Origin: an uncultured bacterium
GTDB taxonomy: Bacteria > Joyebacterota > Joyebacteria > Joyebacterales > Joyebacteraceae
Length of the DNA stretch: 64,000 bases
Direction: 5' to 3'
Assembly: GCA_964516845.1 (NCBI GenBank)
Contig: CAZEXP010000001.1
Span: 124,665 to 188,664 of the forward strand
Part shown: in pieces, positions 55,815-62,514 of the stretch
Position numbering within the stretch: the first letter of the stretch is position 1
How the letters are laid out: every line of letters begins with the position of its first letter
The notes under the pieces: generated by a model
Database searches by the model: none
Told to the model about the DNA's origin: nothing
Seen by the model: only the letters and a program-made list of their open reading frames with translations
Position numbers and translations under genes: made by a program

Positions 55815-56150
55815 GAGGTTGTCGGCCTCGCGCCGGCAGTGCAGTCTCCGCAGCGACGCTCGAACAGCCGCCGTACCCGGTAAGGTGCGGGCGGCGACCG
55901 ACTTCGGCCGATGCATCTGCTGGTCGGCACCAGGAGAGGCGATCGCGCGGAAAGACGAGGCAAGATTCTGCAATCCGACAGCTCTCCAGGAGCGAAAGCC
56001 GGGGAAACCTGAGCGGCCTCCCGCATGCAGGCGAGGAGGCTCCGTACGGAGAGCAACCGATGACGCGAAGCACCGCGACGATGCACGACGGCGCAGCACA
56101 CAGCGTTGGAGCGCGATCGCGTGCGGGCTCCACGACGGAGGTTGTGGGTT
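55815..56150 (+). other. Long (~335 nt) GC-rich, structured 5' leader or unassigned ncRNA upstream of the HU-like gene
   Basis: No credible CDS. ORFs here on both strands are Arg/Ala-rich artefacts. Several local hairpins. Confidence 0.25.
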
Positions 56151-56507
56151 ATGACGAAAGCGGACCTTGTCGATCGCGTTGCCAGCACAACCGGACTGAC
56201 GAAGCGTGACGTCGCCGTTGTCGTTGAGGCGCTCCTTGACTCGATCAAAGACGCGCTCGCCGATCACCGGCACATCGAGATTCGGGAGTTCGGGACGTTC
56301 AAAGTGAAGCAACGCAAAGCCAGCATGAAGTACAACCCGAGAGACCGCTCGCAGAAGGTAGTCGTACCTGCGAAGATGGTCCCGGTGTTCAAGCCGAGCA
56401 AGTTCCTGAAGGAGAAGGTTAACTGGCCTGATGAGCGGGGGATCAATCCCCCCGAAGGGGGAGCAGCATCCCCGGAACCGGCCGTCGATAGCAATCCGGC
56501 GGCATGA
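56151..56507 (+). CDS. HU/IHF-family DNA-binding protein with ~25-aa C-terminal tail
   Basis: MTKADLVDRVASTTGLTKRDVAVVVEALLDSI...IREFGTFKVKQRKA...NPRD is the HU/IHF fold. ATG 56151. Confidence 0.85.
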   Translation: MTKADLVDRVASTTGLTKRDVAVVVEALLDSIKDALADHRHIEIREFGTFKVKQRKASMKYNPRDRSQKVVVPAKMVPVFKPSKFLKEKVNWPDERGINPPEGGAASPEPAVDSNPAA

Positions 56508-56515
56508 GGAGGAGT

Positions 56516-56611
56516 ATGCCGAGTCTGAAGAAGAAACGCCGCAAGAAGATGGCGAAGCACAAGCTCAAGAAGAGGCGCAGGAAGGACCGTCACAAGAAGC
56601 GTGTGCGCTAG
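56516..56611 (+). CDS. Unannotated 31-aa highly basic protein, candidate ribosomal protein bS22 (AURKAIP1/mS38-like family)
   Basis: atgccgagtctgaagaagaaacgccgc... encodes MPSLKKKRRKKMAKHKLKKRRRKDRHKKRVR. Preceded by aggagg. Not in the ORF track (below length cutoff). Resembles mycobacterial bS22 [33 protein letters not shown]. Confidence 0.55.
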   Translation: MPSLKKKRRKKMAKHKLKKRRRKDRHKKRVR

Positions 56612-56644
56612 TCCCGCCGGCGGGAATCACCGTCTGGAGGTTCC

Positions 56645-57046
56645 ATGACTGACAAGAAGCAAGGCAGCTGGGAGGGGCGGGAACGCAGGCAGTCGGCTCG
56701 CGTCAGTGCCCAGGTCGCGCTGCAGCTCGGCGGGCTTGACGATTCGATCCCGGGTGAGTCTCTGACGACCGAGAGCATCAATGTCGGCGCCGAAGGTGTG
56801 TACTGTCACGTCAGTCACTTCATCGCACCGCTGACGAAGCTCCAGCTGACGATGGTCCTCCCGATCAGGGACAAGAAGGGACAGTCGCGCAGCGAGGTCC
56901 TCAAGACGGATGCAGTGGTGGTCCGTTGCCAGCCTGCCGGGAGCGAGAGCAGTGGCTACCGGATCGCGTGTTTCTTCACGGGCCTCGAGCCCGCGGCACG
57001 CGAGGTTCTGCAGGACTACGTGCGGCAGCACGTGGCCCCCGCCTAG
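56645..57046 (+). CDS. PilZ-domain (c-di-GMP-binding) protein
   Basis: RBS ggagg. RxxxR motif (RERRQSAR) and D/NxSxxG-like motif (ESINVGAEG). Confidence 0.65.
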   Translation: MTDKKQGSWEGRERRQSARVSAQVALQLGGLDDSIPGESLTTESINVGAEGVYCHVSHFIAPLTKLQLTMVLPIRDKKGQSRSEVLKTDAVVVRCQPAGSESSGYRIACFFTGLEPAAREVLQDYVRQHVAPA

Positions 57047-57095
57047 GGGCACATACTTCGGCCGCGCGAGCGACCTCTCAAACGAAGAACAAAGA

Positions 57096-57125
57096 GAAGG
57101 CCCGACAGATTTCTGTCGGGCCTTC
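57096..57125. terminator. Bidirectional intrinsic terminator (GAAGGCCCGACAG-attt-CTGTCGGGCCTTC); T-rich tail on the minus strand
   Basis: 13-bp perfect stem between the convergent PilZ (+) and OMP (-) genes. Minus-strand reading gives the hairpin followed by tctctttgttcttcgtttg. Confidence 0.55.
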
Positions 57126-57192
57126 TTCCGTATGAGCGATGTCAGCGGCGGCACTGCCGATGTCGGCGGCGATCGACGCGACGGGGACCGCG

Positions 57193-58524
57193 TTAGAAGC
57201 GGTAGGCCGCCTCGATGATAAGGGCCGTCTCATCAACGGACTCGGTGAAATCGTAATCCTCTGCCGACCGTTCGTATGCCGCGGAAAGCCAGGCGACGTC
57301 TATCGCGAGCACGGTGTCGATCAGAATGCCCGCGCCGACCGTCCAGTACGCCCGGTCCTGATCGACCGTCAACCCGCGATACGAGATCGGCCGCGTCATG
57401 AATCCTCCGCGCACACGAATCGGCATTTCCGGTATCGTCACTTCGACGCCCGCGTTGAGATCGTGAGTCGCCTCGTACGCGTCGCGACGGTCAGCCTGGT
57501 CACCCAGGTAGACCCTTCCCTCGTACTCCATCTCGGACCAGTTGGTGTAGCGGTAGTCGCAGCCGACGATCACCAGGTCCACCGGCGACCAGCTCGCGCC
57601 CACACCGAACGTGAACGGAAGCGTCAGCTTGTCCTCGAAACTCACGACCTCGGTCTCGATGCCCCCCGAAGGACCGGTGAGTTCGTCGGTCCTGCGCTCC
57701 GTTCCGGAGAACGTCAGCGTCGTCGGGAGCGTCACCGTCGCACCGGCCGCGAGCTGATCGGTCAGATAGAAGAGCGCGCCAAGCTTGAACCCGAGACCCG
57801 CAACATCGGCTTCGCTGTCGATCGCGAGGTTGTACGTCTCGTAGTCGGCCGACACACCGTGGTCATCACGTGCCGTGTAGAGGAAGGTCCGTTCGTACGT
57901 CCCTCCAATGATCGAGACCGCCGCGCCGATCGAGACGTTCTCCGAGGCATCGAACGCCGCGGCAAGCGTCCCCGCATACATGTCGCCGTTGCTCAGCAGG
58001 TCCTCGGTCTGGCCCCAGGCTGACGTGTAGTAGAGGCTGTCGGACGGCTCGTACCAGGTCAGCGAGTCATCGTACGTCGCGAGGAAATCGGCATCCAGCC
58101 CGTACACCCTCTCGAACCCCAACCCGACCACGAGCGAACCGCGGAAAGTGGGGAACGGGTAGGCGAAGCGGAGCGCGGAAAGGCTCGTGCTCGTGATGTC
58201 GGTCTCGTATTCGCTCCCGAGCGCGTCGCCGGAACGGCCCCGCCCATCGAAGACGAAGCCGCCGGAGAGCTCCACTCGCCGCAACCGGGCGAGCGCCGCC
58301 GGGTTCGTGAGCATCGCCGAGCCGTCGTCCGCCGTTGCCAGCGCCACGCCACCCATCCCGAGCGACCTGGCCCCGGTCATCGTTGCGTTCGCGAACGGTA
58401 TCTCCGTGAGCGGCGCGACGTATCCGTCGTACGCGGACGCCGGCAGCGATCCGGTCGTGAGAGCGGCCGTGACGATGAGGGCTGCCAGGGCCGTGCGCAT
58501 CGTGCGGTCCATGAGAGTCATCAT
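57193..58524 (-). CDS. Outer-membrane beta-barrel protein (FadL/PorV-like), C-terminal aromatic residue
   Basis: Signal peptide. Alternating amphipathic beta-strand pattern. Ends ...IIEAAYRF, the typical OMP C-terminal Phe. Confidence 0.7.
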   Translation of the reverse strand: MMTLMDRTMRTALAALIVTAALTTGSLPASAYDGYVAPLTEIPFANATMTGARSLGMGGVALATADDGSAMLTNPAALARLRRVELSGGFVFDGRGRSGDALGSEYETDITSTSLSALRFAYPFPTFRGSLVVGLGFERVYGLDADFLATYDDSLTWYEPSDSLYYTSAWGQTEDLLSNGDMYAGTLAAAFDASENVSIGAAVSIIGGTYERTFLYTARDDHGVSADYETYNLAIDSEADVAGLGFKLGALFYLTDQLAAGATVTLPTTLTFSGTERRTDELTGPSGGIETEVVSFEDKLTLPFTFGVGASWSPVDLVIVGCDYRYTNWSEMEYEGRVYLGDQADRRDAYEATHDLNAGVEVTIPEMPIRVRGGFMTRPISYRGLTVDQDRAYWTVGAGILIDTVLAIDVAWLSAAYERSAEDYDFTESVDETALIIEAAYRF

Positions 58525-59090
58525 CAGAATCCCTTCTTCCGCTCTTTCCAGAGCCCGCTGTCATCGGTGCCGCTGTCGTCATCGTCATCCGTGTCCGGCT
58601 TCTTTGGTGTCTCATCCTTGCTGCCGGTCGAAGGCTGGCTCGGCTGCTGCGCGGGAGGCGGAGGTGTTCGTGTCCCGCTCTCCGGTGCGCCAGAGGAACC
58701 GAATCCCCATCCCTTCGTCGGCCAACCGCCGGCTCCCCACAGGTGTCGAACGCCGGTCTCGGGCTCGGGTCCCGGCTCGCCGGGGTCGTCGTAGTAGCCG
58801 TCGTCGTGCCACCACGAGTCGTTGTCATACCACCACGGAGAACCGTAGTAGTCGTTCCAGCGGTAGTGACTCGACCCGTAGCGATAATACGGATGGTAGT
58901 AGGCCGCATCCGAGTGACAGTCGGCGCAGCTCCTGTAGCCCTGGGAATGGTACCCGACGTCCCCGCGCGTATAGTCGGCGCCCGTCGTCAGGTCGTTCCC
59001 GGTCGGGTGCCTGAGAACCGTGTAACACCCGGCCAGAGATACCAGGAGCGCGGCTGCCACCGCGATGAGTAGCACTCTTGTTCGATTCAT
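58524..59090 (-). CDS. Small Tyr/Trp/His-rich lipoprotein with a single CxxCH motif
   Basis: ATG 59090 with RBS ggaggag. Lipobox LAGC. YRSCADCHSDAAYYHPYYRY. Acidic Pro-rich tail. Stop overlaps the OMP start by 1 nt (TGATG). Confidence 0.65.
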   Translation of the reverse strand: MNRTRVLLIAVAAALLVSLAGCYTVLRHPTGNDLTTGADYTRGDVGYHSQGYRSCADCHSDAAYYHPYYRYGSSHYRWNDYYGSPWWYDNDSWWHDDGYYDDPGEPGPEPETGVRHLWGAGGWPTKGWGFGSSGAPESGTRTPPPPAQQPSQPSTGSKDETPKKPDTDDDDDSGTDDSGLWKERKKGF

Positions 59091-59295
59091 GGTCGTTGCT
59101 CCTCCGGGACGCCGGCACCCCGACCCGGCGCGTTCGCCTGAGCGCGAGAGCGTCGTGGCCGCGGGCGATCGTTGTGAGCATCGAACGATTCGACGCCCTG
59201 TACGTCCTGTCATTCAAGGTAGCACAGGAAGAGCCCCCGGGCAATCAGGCTTCGCTCCACGCAAGCCTGCGCCGCGGTCGCCCGGCCGGGCCCGC

Positions 59296-59351: not shown

Positions 59352-60725
59352 ATGATGCGCAGTTCCGAACGCAATACCGCACCACCGAGACCACGCCGGA
59401 TCCCGGCGGCACGGAGGGCTCACACTCTGACGGCCGTTCTGGCCGTAATCCTGATCGCGATCGCGGTCACCCCGTCTTTCGGTTTCGTCCCATCGACGGT
59501 CCGTGAGATCGACGCGGCGGCCGAGGGATACCTCCACTACAGCCTGGGTCGTCTGATGGAGGTGGAGGGACTTCTCGCCGAAGCGCTGGTCCAGTACCGG
59601 CGTGCCCACTCCCTCAACCCGGGCGACTGCGAGCTTCCGACGGCGACGGCCCGGGTGCTCCTCGAGATGGGCAGACTTGAGGAGGCTCTCGAGCGAGCGC
59701 GCGTGGCGCGCAACGGGTGCCCGGACGCGGAGGAACCGCTCGCGGTCGAGGCCGACGCGCTGCTTCTCCTCGAGCGTCCCGAAGAGGCCGAGGCAATCCT
59801 CACGCGCGCATTCGAGGAGGCCGGCGTTGCAATCGACCACGCCGCGGGTCTCTCCACACATCTCGTCGTCCTGCTCGGGCGCTCTCTCGAAGCGCAGGGC
59901 AGGATGGAGGAAGCTCGCACGCTCTATGCCGGCGTGGCCGTGGCGGACACGCTCGAACCGGAGATGGCTTTCCTCTACGCGCGCGCGTCCCTGCTGCTCG
60001 GCGATACGGATACGGCCCTGCGCGAGCTCTGGCGCTCCCACACGCTCCAGCCGTCCAACAGACAGGCGGCGGCGATGCTCGCTCGTCTGCTCGACTCCCT
60101 CGACCGGCACGAGGAGGCTCTGCCGGTCCTTGAGAGACTCGTTGAGCGTGGCGACGCAACGACGGCCGAGTACTTCGCTCTGGCCCGCGCCCACGCGCTC
60201 AGCGGCGACCTCGACCGCTCACAGGCGGTGCTCGATGACGCGACGCGGATATGGGGAGAGACGCCTCCGCTTCTCAGGGCTCGCGCGTCCATCTACTTCG
60301 CGGCGGGACAAAGCGACAGCGCCGTGGCGGTCCACCGAAGACTCATCGAACAGGACCCCGGCGCGGTGACATCGCTGAACTTCCTCGCGTATGAACTCGC
60401 CGACAAGGGAGAGAGCCTCGAAGAGGCGCTCGCTCTGGCCACCCGCGCTCGTGAGCTGTCACCCGAGAGCCCGCTCGTGCGCGACACTCTCGGATGGACC
60501 TATTTCAGACTTGCTCGATACGACGAGGCCGTTCAGGAACTTGAGCTGGCCGTCTCGTTGGGCGCTGACAGCGCGGTCGTGCTCGAACATCTTGGCGACG
60601 CGTACGATGCCCTCGGTCGAACGGACGACGCCAGAGATGCGTGGACGCGTGCCCTGGAGCTCGACCCGGAGCGGAACACGACCCTGCAGAGGCTCACCGG
60701 CGGAGCGCCACATGGCGAACGATAG
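59352..60725 (+). CDS. Secreted/anchored TPR-repeat protein
   Basis: N-terminal hydrophobic segment, then at least 8 TPR-like helical pairs. Confidence 0.75.
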   Translation: MMRSSERNTAPPRPRRIPAARRAHTLTAVLAVILIAIAVTPSFGFVPSTVREIDAAAEGYLHYSLGRLMEVEGLLAEALVQYRRAHSLNPGDCELPTATARVLLEMGRLEEALERARVARNGCPDAEEPLAVEADALLLLERPEEAEAILTRAFEEAGVAIDHAAGLSTHLVVLLGRSLEAQGRMEEARTLYAGVAVADTLEPEMAFLYARASLLLGDTDTALRELWRSHTLQPSNRQAAAMLARLLDSLDRHEEALPVLERLVERGDATTAEYFALARAHALSGDLDRSQAVLDDATRIWGETPPLLRARASIYFAAGQSDSAVAVHRRLIEQDPGAVTSLNFLAYELADKGESLEEALALATRARELSPESPLVRDTLGWTYFRLARYDEAVQELELAVSLGADSAVVLEHLGDAYDALGRTDDARDAWTRALELDPERNTTLQRLTGGAPHGER

Positions 60726-61524
60726 ACCGATGCGCATCTCGATCCGTCTTGCCGTCACGCTCGTCGCGCTCGCACTCGTGGCCGGGTGCGGGGGAATGCG
60801 CGTGCCGACGGAATCATTGACCGCGTCGGACCTCGACCGGATCGCGGCCGAGGTCGACGCGACGGCCCGGGATCTCACCGCGCTCCGCGGCACGGGCAGC
60901 GGCCTGCTCTCATCGGACGATCACAGGACTCCGTTCGCCTTCGCCGTCGTCTACGATCGCGCGGGCTGGCTTCGAGCCGACATTCGTCCCTCGTCGCCGG
61001 CCGCCCCGAGCGGCTTCACGGCCCAGATCCTCGTCGAACAGGAGTGTGCCGACATGCTCTTCCCTTCGAGTCTCGTCATCGTCACAGGGTGTCTCGACAC
61101 CGTTCCGTTCGCGGACCCCGCGCTCCTGCTGTTCGGCGCTGTCAGGGGTGAAGACATTCTCGGGCTCGAAGATCCCGTCGCCGCCGAAGATCACGAATCG
61201 ATGCGGCTCACGGGGCGGCGCGGCGAGACGCGGATCGACCTGACGCTCGACCGCGATACACACCGGCTCACGAGCATTGAGGTCCGCAGCGATGATGACG
61301 ACTGGCTCTCCATCGAGTACGATGGTCACGGGTGGAAGGATTCGCTGCCGCTTCCGCGGACCACGATCATCAGGTTTGGTCGGAAGGGGCGCACGCAGGC
61401 CAGACTCCGGTTTGAGTTCGACCGATTGCGGGCCATCGACCCCGTCGACCGAACCGCACTCGATCTTGTCGTTCCACCCGGCACAACGGTTTCCGGTTGG
61501 GAAGACCTCGCTCTCTGGAGGTAG
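60712..61524 (+). CDS. Lipoprotein, LolB/DUF4292-like
   Basis: ATG 60712 overlaps the TPR gene end. Lipobox LVAGC. Confidence 0.55.
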   Translation: MANDRPMRISIRLAVTLVALALVAGCGGMRVPTESLTASDLDRIAAEVDATARDLTALRGTGSGLLSSDDHRTPFAFAVVYDRAGWLRADIRPSSPAAPSGFTAQILVEQECADMLFPSSLVIVTGCLDTVPFADPALLLFGAVRGEDILGLEDPVAAEDHESMRLTGRRGETRIDLTLDRDTHRLTSIEVRSDDDDWLSIEYDGHGWKDSLPLPRTTIIRFGRKGRTQARLRFEFDRLRAIDPVDRTALDLVVPPGTTVSGWEDLALWR

Positions 61525-61527
61525 CTC

Positions 61528-62514
61528 ATGAGATCAGTAGTCTGCACACTTGTCGCCCTCGCAGCGCTCACGACGGGCTGCACCGGGCCGACGATGCCGG
61601 CCTTCGGCGAGACCGACGATCTGGTGATCATCATCGACGCGTCAGCGAGCGCTGCGCTCCGGGACGGGCTGTCCTCCGTCTTCGAGGCGGTGGACACGTG
61701 GCTCGTCCGCGAGCCCTGTTTCGACGTTGTGTTCGCAACACCCCGGCAGCTCGGCGACTACACCAGCTGGCGCAACATACTTCTCTGCGGCACGTGGAAC
61801 GGGGGAGAGACGGCGGACGTCGTGCGGAGCAGGGTTCCGGGCGTCCCGCTCACCGACGATGCGACCCTGACGACGTCGACCGATGTCTGGGCCGGCCGTC
61901 AGGTCGTTGCCGCGCTCATGGCGGGCTCTGAGGAGCAGCTCCTGTCCTTCCTCGCAACGGAGGGAGACGCTCTCAGGTCCGAGCTGACGAACGACATCAG
62001 GGAGCGCCTCGTCACCGCGCTCTGCCAGGACACCCGAACTTCGGGGCGCCGCGACGCGCTCGAAGAAAGGTTCGGCTGGACGATCTGCGTACCCGAGGAC
62101 TACGAGCTCGACACCGGCGCGGAGCGCGACGGATTCGTCAGGTTCGACCGACGGCAGCCCGACCGCTACGTGTTCATCTCGTGGCGTCCCGGAACGCCCG
62201 GCGACGTCACCCGCGAGTACGCGACATCGGAGCGCGACCGTCTCTGTTCGCTCTACCACAACGGCGACACCCTCCAGGACCGCAGACCGGTCCTCGCGGA
62301 CACGGTCCAGCTGGCCGACGAGCCGGCGCTGAGGTTGCGCGGCTGGTGGGGGAACAGAGAGCTCTCCGGAGGCGGCCCCTTCATCTCGTACTGCCTCTAC
62401 GCGCCGGACGACGGGCTCGTCTACTTCATCGACGCCAGTCTCTTTGCGCCGGGACAGGACAAGACACCACTGATGCGGCATCTCGACGGCGTCCTGATGA
62501 CGTTCCGTCCGTAG
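61528..62514 (+). CDS. Hypothetical lipoprotein
   Basis: Lipobox LTTGC. No recognisable domain. Confidence 0.6.
   Translation: MRSVVCTLVALAALTTGCTGPTMPAFGETDDLVIIIDASASAALRDGLSSVFEAVDTWLVREPCFDVVFATPRQLGDYTSWRNILLCGTWNGGETADVVRSRVPGVPLTDDATLTTSTDVWAGRQVVAALMAGSEEQLLSFLATEGDALRSELTNDIRERLVTALCQDTRTSGRRDALEERFGWTICVPEDYELDTGAERDGFVRFDRRQPDRYVFISWRPGTPGDVTREYATSERDRLCSLYHNGDTLQDRRPVLADTVQLADEPALRLRGWWGNRELSGGGPFISYCLYAPDDGLVYFIDASLFAPGQDKTPLMRHLDGVLMTFRP

Follow-up and report, generated by a model that had tools for sequence, protein, structure and literature searches.

What does a very small lipoprotein with a single CxxCH motif do beside the outer-membrane barrel whose gene its own gene overlaps? 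The question is raised by two genes in the window, i.e. the whole 64,000-nucleotide stretch of DNA that was analysed. An earlier note had described a minus-strand pair, overlapping by 1 nt, of a 188-aa lipoprotein (LAGC) and a 443-aa, Phe-ending, FadL/PorV-like barrel, and had suggested that the lipoprotein is either exported through the barrel or partnered with it. The pair is a two-gene outer-membrane unit of several uncultured Bacteroidota relatives, and its role is what we infer below. The pairing of a FadL/BamG-type barrel with a small CxxCH lipoprotein has not been described previously.

Gene pair and operon layout

Both open reading frames are present as the earlier note had described them, and an independent public gene call gives the identical two products (Table 1). 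The stop codon of the lipoprotein gene and the start codon of the barrel gene have one base in common, in TGATG. A hairpin resembling an intrinsic terminator lies 67 nt past the barrel stop codon; one such site was found against 1.3 expected by chance in the region, and the terminator call is based on the 14-bp stem and the position of the hairpin, not on the site count. Upstream of the operon, the element GTGCTAYCTTGAAT-N16-CGTC is kept among upstream regions that otherwise do not align; it is found at the equal relative position in nine further genome loci as well as in L063, which is a second copy of the window's own locus, and the window contains one copy, where 0.04 would be expected. This element is possibly the operon promoter, a candidate of the ECF type; a scan for sigma-70 promoters gave no match.

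Table 1. Features of the lipoprotein–barrel gene pair and its flanks (positions are those of the window; residues are those of the respective protein).
Feature	Position	Strand	Remarks
Conserved upstream non-coding motif, GTGCTAYCTTGAAT-N16-CGTC	59192..59226	minus	Upstream-region comparison
Lipoprotein gene	58524..59090	minus	188 aa; begins MNRTRVLLIAVAAALLVSLAGC
Lipoprotein signal peptide, residues 1-21	59028..59090	minus	Lipobox L-A-G ahead of Cys22
Anchor motif C-Y-T-V-L-R-H-P, residues 22-29	59004..59027	minus	Lipidated Cys with the segment proposed to dock on the barrel; His28 as putative distal haem ligand
Tyr/Trp/His/Asp-rich core, residues 41-103	58782..58970	minus	Composition measurement
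CADCH, residues 55-59	58914..58928	minus	Haem c-type CxxCH motif; only CxxCH in the lipoprotein
YYGSPWW, residues 81-87	58830..58850	minus	Inside the core; Y-Y-x-x-P-W-W invariant across phyla
Low-complexity tail, residues 104-188, then stop codon	58524..58781	minus	Carries RHLW, GWxxxGWGF and C-terminal LWKERKKGF
Barrel gene (FadL superfamily, BamG-like, 14-strand outer-membrane barrel)	57193..58524	minus	443 aa; C-terminus ...AAYRF; signal peptide residues 1-31
N-terminal extension of the mature barrel, residues 32-50	58375..58431	minus	Conserved P-x-x-E-I-P motif
Hatch motif GARSLGMGG...DDGSAMLTNPAAL, residues 51-78	58291..58374	minus	With NPA motif; conservation
Barrel-wall stretch A-Y-P-F-P-T-F-R-G-S-L-V, residues 121-132	58129..58164	minus	Strand 2/3 junction; highest conservation in the wall
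Intrinsic-terminator-like hairpin	57095..57126	minus	14-bp stem and T-rich tail, at the end of the two-gene operon

Sequence features of the lipoprotein

The lipoprotein has 73 close homologues, and an exhaustive HMM search extends the family to 365 clusters, which are small proteins throughout; no Pfam or NCBIfam family was assigned to it. Three elements are fixed in the family: G-C-Y-T-[VLMI]-[LI]-x-H-P at the lipid anchor, CxxCH, and YYxxPWW. The Gly at position -1 and the lipobox Cys are shared by all 59 members, and the anchor motif is invariant in three alignments (A1, A3 and A4) and across phyla; the same anchor consensus was recovered from the unbiased HMM hits, for which the motif had not been used as the search pattern. 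Most mature members contain exactly three Cys.

The richness in Tyr, Trp, His and Asp to which the earlier note had drawn attention was borne out by measurement, as these residues make up 52% of the 63-residue core (residues 41-103) versus 11.6% of ten other proteins encoded in the window. Within this core, the CxxCH motif stands in the local context GYRS-CADCH-SDAAYYHP; the tail that follows the core is enriched in Gly, Pro, Asp, Thr, Ser and Lys. An AF2 model of the lipoprotein alone showed no confident fold (pLDDT 52; tail below 60 throughout), and such a lack of fold in the isolated protein is in line with folding that requires a partner or cofactor.

Structure and family of the barrel

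The structure predicted for the barrel is a confident 14-strand FadL fold with an N-terminal hatch that bears an NPA motif, and the lumen is filled by this hatch. Together with the match to Pfam PF03349 (FadL / Toluene_X; 51.7 bits versus a threshold of 29.7, E 6e-14), which is also present in all homologues of the barrel, the fold substantiates the FadL part of the earlier FadL/PorV-like assignment. The PorV part was rejected: PorV and PorQ of the type IX secretion system are likewise FadL-derived barrels with a GARxxGMGG...NPA N-terminal hatch motif, and the barrel's PorV_fam match is due to the hatch stretch, but the test for a PorV/PorQ family HMM score above the cut-off together with a PorV-like structure was negative.

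Among the NCBIfam models BamG (NF053685) is the top match, at 81.8 bits and under the curated cut-off of 250, and it is likewise the top match for nine of the ten barrels from loci of other phyla (32-89 bits against the BamG HMM, with one barrel lacking a BamG match). When the barrel family profile was searched against PDB sequences, BtBamG was matched with E 2.7e-14 and FadL with E 5e-4. The mature barrel has 21 residues ahead of GxxxGMGG, compared with 22 in BtBamG, about 10 in FadL, 7 in CymD and 12 in TbuX (alignments; PMC12578637); its N-terminal extension thus has the length of that of BamG and reaches about 11 residues beyond FadL, CymD or TbuX (PMC12578637). Within the extension, P38, E41 and P43 are nearly invariant, and the motif E-[IL]-[PT] is family-wide; in the hatch, G51, A52, R53, G56, M57, G58, N74, P75 and A76 are invariant or almost so. 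The wall stretch at residues 121-132 is nearly invariant and visibly kept in the barrels of other phyla, and may represent a lateral opening or a docking site. The barrel ends at its last predicted strand (residues 426-442 of 443) with no C-terminal tail, compared with about seven further residues beyond the aligned region in BtBamG.

Distribution and conserved neighbourhood

In 53 of 58 related genome loci, a search for homologous lipoprotein/barrel pairs found the barrel gene directly downstream of the lipoprotein gene and in the same orientation, which upholds the earlier suggestion of a partnership. Three of the five exceptions are contig ends, and two loci (L036 and L058) have the lipoprotein and lack the barrel. 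The gaps between the two genes range from about -57 to +200 nt across the loci and are mostly below 80 nt. The pairing and the homologue counts lift the observation above chance.

Among the loci examined, the pair is confined to FCB-group lineages. The lipoproteins of two loci (L059 and L062) are divergent in sequence but have a similar Tyr/Trp-rich composition, keep G-C-Y-T, and are encoded upstream of related barrels. A cross-phylum profile search returned MAG proteins only (Zixibacteria, Kryptonia), with no entry from Ignavibacterium album or Gemmatimonas. A divergently oriented TPR gene is conserved beside the pair in 27 loci, within Eisenbacteria only, and the other conserved neighbours (DUF4837, EF-P), like the TPR gene, reflect lineage-restricted synteny only; genes for BamA, BamD, Ccm or T9SS did not appear in the search for conserved neighbours in the loci.

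Possible haem or metal at the CxxCH motif

The single CxxCH pointed out in the earlier note proved to be conserved among homologues, being kept in 58 of the 59 members from the loci and in 141 of 147 representatives of the unbiased HMM search; its two middle residues vary freely among members, and a few lineages are without it. Of the His residues outside CxxCH, only that of the anchor is invariant in the family. Both CxxCH and anchor His are present in 301 cases, CxxCH alone in one, the His alone in three and neither in four (Fisher p 4.7e-7, phylogeny ignored), a pattern of co-loss that fits bis-His ligation and that a metal site predicts equally. One member carries the automatic UniRef name 'Cytochrome c domain-containing protein'. 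The lipoprotein probably carries one haem c at CxxCH, judging from motif conservation and correlated loss.

Neither a WWD-motif protein (cytochrome c maturation) nor a further CxxCH protein turned up in the window or the loci, and a CcdA-like gene lies near one locus only (L041). The lack of maturation genes in this sequence speaks for a reading that we regard as a real possibility, in which CxxCH is not a haem site and its Cys pair would form a disulfide or, together with two His, would bind Zn, Cu or Fe and stiffen the disordered segment. The His/Asp-rich region suits such a site, the co-loss of His and CxxCH would fit a C2H2 metal site just as well, and in BamM of F. johnsoniae a domain lacking secondary structure is kept together by bound calcium/metal ions. 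However, a His kept almost universally after the second Cys, with free middle residues, is the signature of haem c attachment, and the automatic UniRef rule names a member as a cytochrome c domain; furthermore, it is rare for one metal to be bound by a Cys and its neighbouring His, and few metal sites in the oxidising periplasm are based on Cys.

Comparison with BamG-BamH and with uptake channels

In the Bacteroidota BAM complex, BamG is the FadL-like subunit, bound to the back of the BamA barrel, and BamH is its surface-lipoprotein partner (PMC12611786, PMC12578637; PDB 9N2D, 9HIV/9HJ3, 9HJM); both are essential, FCB-specific BAM additions that were first described in 2025. BamH is an elongated protein with a carbohydrate-binding-like domain and a conserved lipidated N-terminus that is wedged into BamG, and the C-terminal tail of BamG touches BamD. 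The genes bamH and bamG adjoin each other in Ignavibacterium, Gemmatimonas, Fibrobacter, Salinibacter and Caldithrix.

The pair described here resembles BamG-BamH in its 14-strand FadL-fold barrel with an N-terminal extension of about 11-12 residues beyond that of FadL, in the barrel's best sequence match being BamG, in adjacent genes (as in the non-Bacteroidia FCB phyla) that are restricted to FCB-group lineages, and in a lipoprotein partner that is highly conserved after the lipid Cys, the last being a likeness in function and not homology. In contrast, the BamG cut-off is far above the score of the barrel, which also lacks a C-terminal tail, and the lipoprotein, with about 165 aa in its mature form, shows no predicted fold, is without the folded domain and the acidic export signal of BamH, and contains CxxCH and a Tyr/Trp-rich core, features not reported for BamH. 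When the lipoprotein profile was run against PDB sequences, which include BamH chains, nothing was matched at E<=10.

A short and largely disordered lipoprotein is also known as the partner of LptD, i.e. LptM (YifL), whose lipidated N-terminus contacts the barrel. LptM is similar to the lipoprotein of the pair in being short and mostly disordered, and its contact with the barrel is made by the lipidated N-terminus and not by a folded domain; there is no homology (NCBIfam E 0.66, signal peptide only), LptM pairs with a different barrel family, and it has neither CxxCH nor an aromatic core.

It is unlikely that the barrel is an ordinary FadL-type channel for uptake of hydrophobic compounds, with the lipoprotein as a substrate-capturing or regulatory accessory and with no link to BAM. 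The solved transporters of the FadL/TodX/CymD type (PF03349) that were compared have a short N-terminus and were matched as single chains, whereas the barrel here has an extended N-terminus typical of BamG and not of transporters, and a translationally coupled lipoprotein gene. Further points against an uptake channel are the occurrence of the pair in FCB-group lineages only, with the gene order of bamH-bamG, the lack of conserved catabolic neighbours (the TPR gene being the sole neighbour conserved within Eisenbacteria), and the lack of the acylase in the window and the Eisenbacteria loci.

Comparison with porin-cytochromes and translocons

Cyc2, the fused cytochrome-porin of iron oxidisers, oxidises Fe2+ with one haem and a small barrel (PMC8406198), and like the pair it ties a CxxCH site to an outer-membrane barrel, with a small CxxCH-bearing part that is unstable or unfolded alone (PMC8406198). 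Cyc2 is a single polypeptide with a fused, 16-strand porin-type barrel, with AxPxFAR[QK][TY] five residues before CxxCH and PxL four residues after it (PMC8406198), whereas the pair consists of two genes, a FadL fold and a lipid anchor. Homology to Cyc2 was rejected, as the lipoprotein has neither AxPxFAR[QK][TY] nor PxL and the barrel is a separate FadL-fold gene.

We consider it improbable that the pair is a split minimal porin-cytochrome, in which a monohaem lipoprotein at the barrel would move electrons at or across the outer membrane, as in Cyc2 or Mtr/Pcc. The conserved CxxCH in an exported protein, its translational coupling to a barrel, the candidate bis-His clamp suggested by the correlated loss and the extreme Tyr/Trp richness of the core would suit this function. 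Tyr and Trp residues can in principle relay electrons. Nevertheless, the Cyc2 signature motifs are missing, the barrel, with 14 strands in a FadL fold, is plugged and not an open porin of 16 to 26 strands, one haem is too short to span the membrane, no further cytochrome or redox gene is conserved nearby, and some members lack CxxCH.

In Slam proteins, a TPR domain is joined to a 14-strand barrel. An acidic lipoprotein export signal requires two or more Asp/Glu among the six residues that follow the Cys (PMC12578637), and no acidic residue was found in Y-T-V-L-[RKQ]-H after the Cys in any of the 59 members (0/59). The earlier suggestion that the lipoprotein is exported through the barrel is not supported. 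A dedicated Slam-like translocon that flips the neighbouring lipoprotein to the surface, as cargo and not as partner, would suit the tight gene coupling, the lateral wall opening in FadL-family barrels and the divergent TPR neighbour in 27 loci. Such a translocon is highly improbable, however, as the lumen is filled by the hatch, the acidic export signal is missing (PMC12578637), the TPR neighbour is conserved within Eisenbacteria only, and the barrel is absent from the two loci with a lone lipoprotein.

Proposed mechanism

The best explanation as a whole, which we put forward tentatively, is that the BamG-like barrel and the small lipoprotein form a stable outer-membrane complex that would carry haem c and act as a BAM accessory. 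Both proteins would be exported and the lipoprotein acylated at Cys22, as follows from their sequences. The invariant Y-T-V-L-x-H-P after the lipid Cys would then dock on the barrel wall or on the N-terminal extension, a step suggested by conservation, by gene order and by analogy to the N-terminal tail of BamH wedged into BamG; that the lipoprotein is docked on the barrel as a complex is probable. In the main subfamily, one haem c would be held covalently at CxxCH, with the anchor His, six residues from the lipid, as the likely second axial ligand, which would place the haem next to the barrel at the surface of the membrane. From this haem/anchor point, the Tyr/Trp-rich core and the disordered tail would project.

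The cellular role is the weakest step of this scheme: the foremost candidate is an accessory of the FCB-type BAM machinery, in the place held by bamH-bamG in related phyla, and such a BAM-associated role is conceivable but doubtful. More speculatively, a single haem c clamped by CxxCH and the anchor-proximal His, against a BamG/FadL-type barrel and flanked by a Tyr/Trp array, could constitute a new outer-membrane cytochrome in Eisenbacteria, Zixibacteria, Latescibacteria and relatives, i.e. either a minimal two-gene redox device that moves electrons to or from the surface or a redox link to outer-membrane protein assembly; we rate this as rather unlikely.

Significance

In several uncultured FCB-group phyla, a BamG-like barrel is preceded by a lipoprotein other than the large BamH, one that is very small and apparently unfolded and in which only the motif at the lipid anchor, the CxxCH of haem type and a block of aromatic residues are retained. 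Should the pair sit on BAM, the minimal BamH-type partner would be an anchored N-terminus, and outer-membrane biogenesis would gain a possible redox cofactor. Should the pair be independent of BAM, it would represent a family, not described before, of monohaem lipoproteins at the membrane surface that are associated with a FadL-type barrel. In both cases, about 365 clusters of "hypothetical proteins" gain a testable assignment.

Operon organization and neighboring genes

The lipoprotein gene and the barrel gene are flanked on both sides by genes of the opposite strand and therefore form a two-gene operon. The minus-strand operon with a 1-nt overlap that an earlier note had claimed was recovered in full: both reading frames, their coordinates, and the single base common to the lipoprotein stop and the barrel start (within TGATG); the same two products appear in the public gene call on an independent assembly. 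GGAGG is located 9 nt 5' of the lipoprotein ATG, and a hairpin follows the barrel gene. The conserved upstream motif GTGCTAYCTTGAAT-N16-CGTC occurs once in the window (0.04 expected) and was also found at numbered loci of relatives (L001, L002, L004, L006, L007, L010, L015 and L020), where the surrounding upstream sequence does not align and the encoded proteins share only ~45% identity. The motif looks like an ECF-sigma-type promoter (-35 TGAAT, -10 CGTC). The features are summarized in the table.

Coordinates of features in the window and in loci of relatives
Feature	Source	Position	Strand	Remarks
Lipoprotein ORF	window	58524..59090	-	188 aa; N-terminal start MNRTRVLLIAVAAALLVSLAGC
Lipoprotein tail	window	58524..58781	-	residues 104-188
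Barrel ORF	window	57193..58524	-	443 aa; C-terminal end AAYRF
14-bp GC-rich hairpin, T-rich tail	window	57095..57126	-	67 nt past barrel stop
GTGCTAYCTTGAAT-N16-CGTC	window	59192..59226	-	non-coding; ~100-140 nt 5' of lipoprotein start
GTGCTAYCTTGAAT-N16-CGTC	L001; L002; L004	5866-5879; 5861-5874; 5871-5884
Divergent cluster	window	59352..62514	+	457-aa TPR protein, 270-aa protein, DUF4837 lipoprotein
HU-family DNA-binding protein (PF00216), small PilZ-domain protein (PF07238)	window	56106..57046	+	immediately downstream of operon
250-283 aa outer-membrane-type gene	L041; L036; L058; L059	5129-5980; 5102-5884; 5166-5918; 2506-3291
Penicillin amidase (PF01804)	L036; L058; L059; L062	6711-9383; 6623-8983; 6571-8985; 6506-8989
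Larger lipoprotein	L059	3466-4863		465 aa; very long Arg/Ser/Thr/Gly tail
Larger lipoprotein	L062	4041-4976		311 aa; very long Arg/Ser/Thr/Gly tail
CcdA/DsbD-like protein	L041	9534-10271	-	1.6 kb downstream of pair

The TPR gene of the divergent cluster adjoins the pair in 27 loci, all of Eisenbacteria type; outside Eisenbacteria, the neighborhood comparison revealed no further conserved gene. The 270-aa protein (the shorter of two possible starts) has a signal peptide ending LVAGCGG and no Pfam family, and the PF07238 match of the PilZ-domain protein is just above threshold.

Conservation of the pair

Close homologues of the lipoprotein number 73, and those with names all belong to Candidatus Eisenbacteria MAGs. 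Scanning a single genome per species yielded 58 loci, labelled Eisenbacteria, Latescibacterota, Kryptonia and Ignavibacteria, with one MAG each labelled Cloacimonetes, Gemmatimonadota and Cytophagia; members from Zixibacteria were found in a later protein search. This search for homologous lipoprotein/OMP pairs, proposed in the earlier note, showed that in 53 of the 58 loci the next gene after the lipoprotein gene, in the same orientation, is a barrel homologue, at an intergenic distance of ~-57 to +200 nt (mostly <80). Three of the other five are contig ends, which leaves L036 and L058 as real exceptions; the pair is conserved.

Some labels deserve comment. For the lipoprotein of L041 (Ignavibacterium sp. 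BE2012_50_10), comparison of the N-terminal 87 aa gave 98% identity to the representative of a protein cluster in which all named members come from Zixibacteria MAGs, and this MAG contig may have been mislabelled. L034 and L037, which carry the labels Cloacimonetes and Gemmatimonadota respectively, closely resemble each other.

In the more distant lineages, the lipoprotein gene is closely preceded by a gene for an outer-membrane-type protein of 250-283 aa (also in L045, L053, L054, L056 and L057); this protein matches Pfam YjbH weakly (E 1e-5), ends in Phe in two of three cases read, and is absent from the window and the Eisenbacteria loci. A penicillin-amidase gene (acylase family) comes directly after the lipoprotein gene in L036 and L058, which have no FadL-like barrel, and next after the barrel in L059-L062; it might point to acylated compounds, or might simply reflect synteny.

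The barrel

The barrel belongs to Pfam Toluene_X/FadL (51.7 bits, threshold 29.7), and the structure prediction, also proposed earlier, gave a confident AF2 model (pLDDT 90.1, pTM 0.82) with hatch helices followed by the barrel. Structure searches did not tell FadL and BamG, the FadL-like barrel of the Bacteroidota BAM complex, apart (E. coli FadL, 33.9; BamG of P. gingivalis, 33.7, F. johnsoniae, 33.5, and B. thetaiotaomicron, 32.5; TodX, 32.0), and set apart the T9SS barrel PorV (26.7); of the description "FadL/PorV-like", only the first half stands. The best Foldseek match is BtBamG (9hiv_F).

Sequence is more telling for the nearest family. BamG is the top NCBIfam family for the window barrel (81.8 bits) and for nine of ten barrels of other phyla, always far below the 250-bit cut-off, and the family profile matched, among PDB sequences, BtBamG (E 2.7e-14), CymD (1e-10) and PgBamG (2e-10), and more weakly TodX (1e-7) and FadL (5e-4). 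In the same alignments, ~21 mature residues precede the GxxxGMGG hatch motif, compared with 22 in BtBamG and 7-12 in transporters; this agrees with the "12-residue N-terminal extension" that separates BamG from transporting FadL proteins (Silale et al., PMC12578637). The extension holds a conserved E-I-P motif; the short C-terminal tail of BamG is absent. The barrel is a new, divergent member of the known FadL/BamG kind; that it is simply a FadL-type uptake channel served by an accessory lipoprotein appears unlikely.

The lipoprotein family

The richness in Tyr/Trp/His/Asp remarked on earlier is confirmed, with 52% in residues 41-103 against 11.6% in ten other window proteins. The lipoprotein has no Pfam or NCBIfam family, its family profile found no relative among PDB sequences (E<=10), and AF2 with a 73-sequence alignment predicted no fold (pLDDT 52). 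An exhaustive HMM search of 1.84 billion representatives yielded 365 clusters (E<=1e-3), the best 150 of which are 84-237 aa long and include no larger multidomain relative. Three elements are fixed across phyla: G-C-Y-T-[VLMI]-[LI]-x-H-P at the lipidation site, C-x-x-C-H after another 15-45 residues, and Y-Y-x-x-P-W-W ~30 residues past that. The remainder is a low-complexity tail, which in Eisenbacteria-type members carries R-H-L-W (twice in some; L026, L030, L023) and usually ends in KKGF; both resemble short linear motifs for binding, set in a disordered tail. This undescribed family combines an anchor motif, a CxxCH and an aromatic block in an unusual way.

The CxxCH motif as a probable cofactor site

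The CxxCH, on whose conservation the earlier note had made its proposal depend, is present in 58 of 59 loci and, among unbiased representatives, in 141 of 147; its middle residues vary freely, its His is always retained, and most mature lipoproteins contain no Cys beyond the lipidated one and the two of CxxCH, three in all. Among 309 distinct members, 301 have both CxxCH and the anchor His (His28 in the window), three have only the anchor His, one has only CxxCH, with a His two residues later, and four have neither. Their losses are correlated (Fisher's exact p = 4.7e-7, phylogeny ignored), and the double losses may stem from just two or three events. Most simply, CxxCH and the anchor His would make up a single site, which fits bis-His haem c and, with lower probability, a C2H2 metal site. 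We lean towards a covalently bound haem c whose second ligand is the anchor His; use of the CxxCH without haem is a lesser, still appreciable possibility.

One Kryptonia member is already called "Cytochrome c domain-containing protein" by a UniRef automatic rule. No cytochrome c maturation gene was seen in the window or the loci, which cover a small part of each genome. L041 alone among the loci encodes a CcdA/DsbD-like membrane protein near the pair, by its sequence of the thiol-reduction type of cytochrome c biogenesis. A split porin-cytochrome is quite improbable; the signature motifs of the fused cytochrome-porin Cyc2 are missing.

Relation to BamG/BamH

Two 2025 papers describe, in Bacteroidota BAM, an essential BamA-bound BamG and the surface lipoprotein BamH; the N-tail of BamH, which is conserved and lipidated, occupies a BamG groove or sits wedged between BamG strands (PMC12611786, PMC12578637). 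Liu et al. found both proteins in six of seven other FCB phyla, and in their accession table bamG and bamH adjoin in Ignavibacterium, Salinibacter, Fibrobacter, Gemmatimonas, Caldithrix and Chitinophaga. The window pair shares with BamG/BamH the gene layout, a restricted taxonomic range and the BamG-like barrel and, as in BamH, the best-conserved part of the lipoprotein directly follows the lipid Cys. However, the lipoprotein has no sequence similarity to BamH, lacks a folded domain and an acidic export signal, and has a CxxCH, a motif not reported in BamH. A compositional parallel is the 38-residue disordered Tyr-rich extracellular loop of Bacteroidota BamA.

The lipoproteins of L059-L062 (311-465 aa) start G-C-Y-T-Q and are Tyr/Trp-rich, without H-P or CxxCH; profile comparison confined their similarity to the signal peptide and G-C-Y-T. 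They keep G-C-Y-T ahead of related FadL-like barrels, which strengthens the idea that the N-terminal segment contacts the barrel; this segment probably docks there. A BAM-associated role of the pair is a tentative suggestion, and a Slam-like exporter is very improbable. The pair is a new variant on the BamG/BamH-type barrel-lipoprotein theme, and a confirmed haem at the membrane surface would sharply raise its interest.
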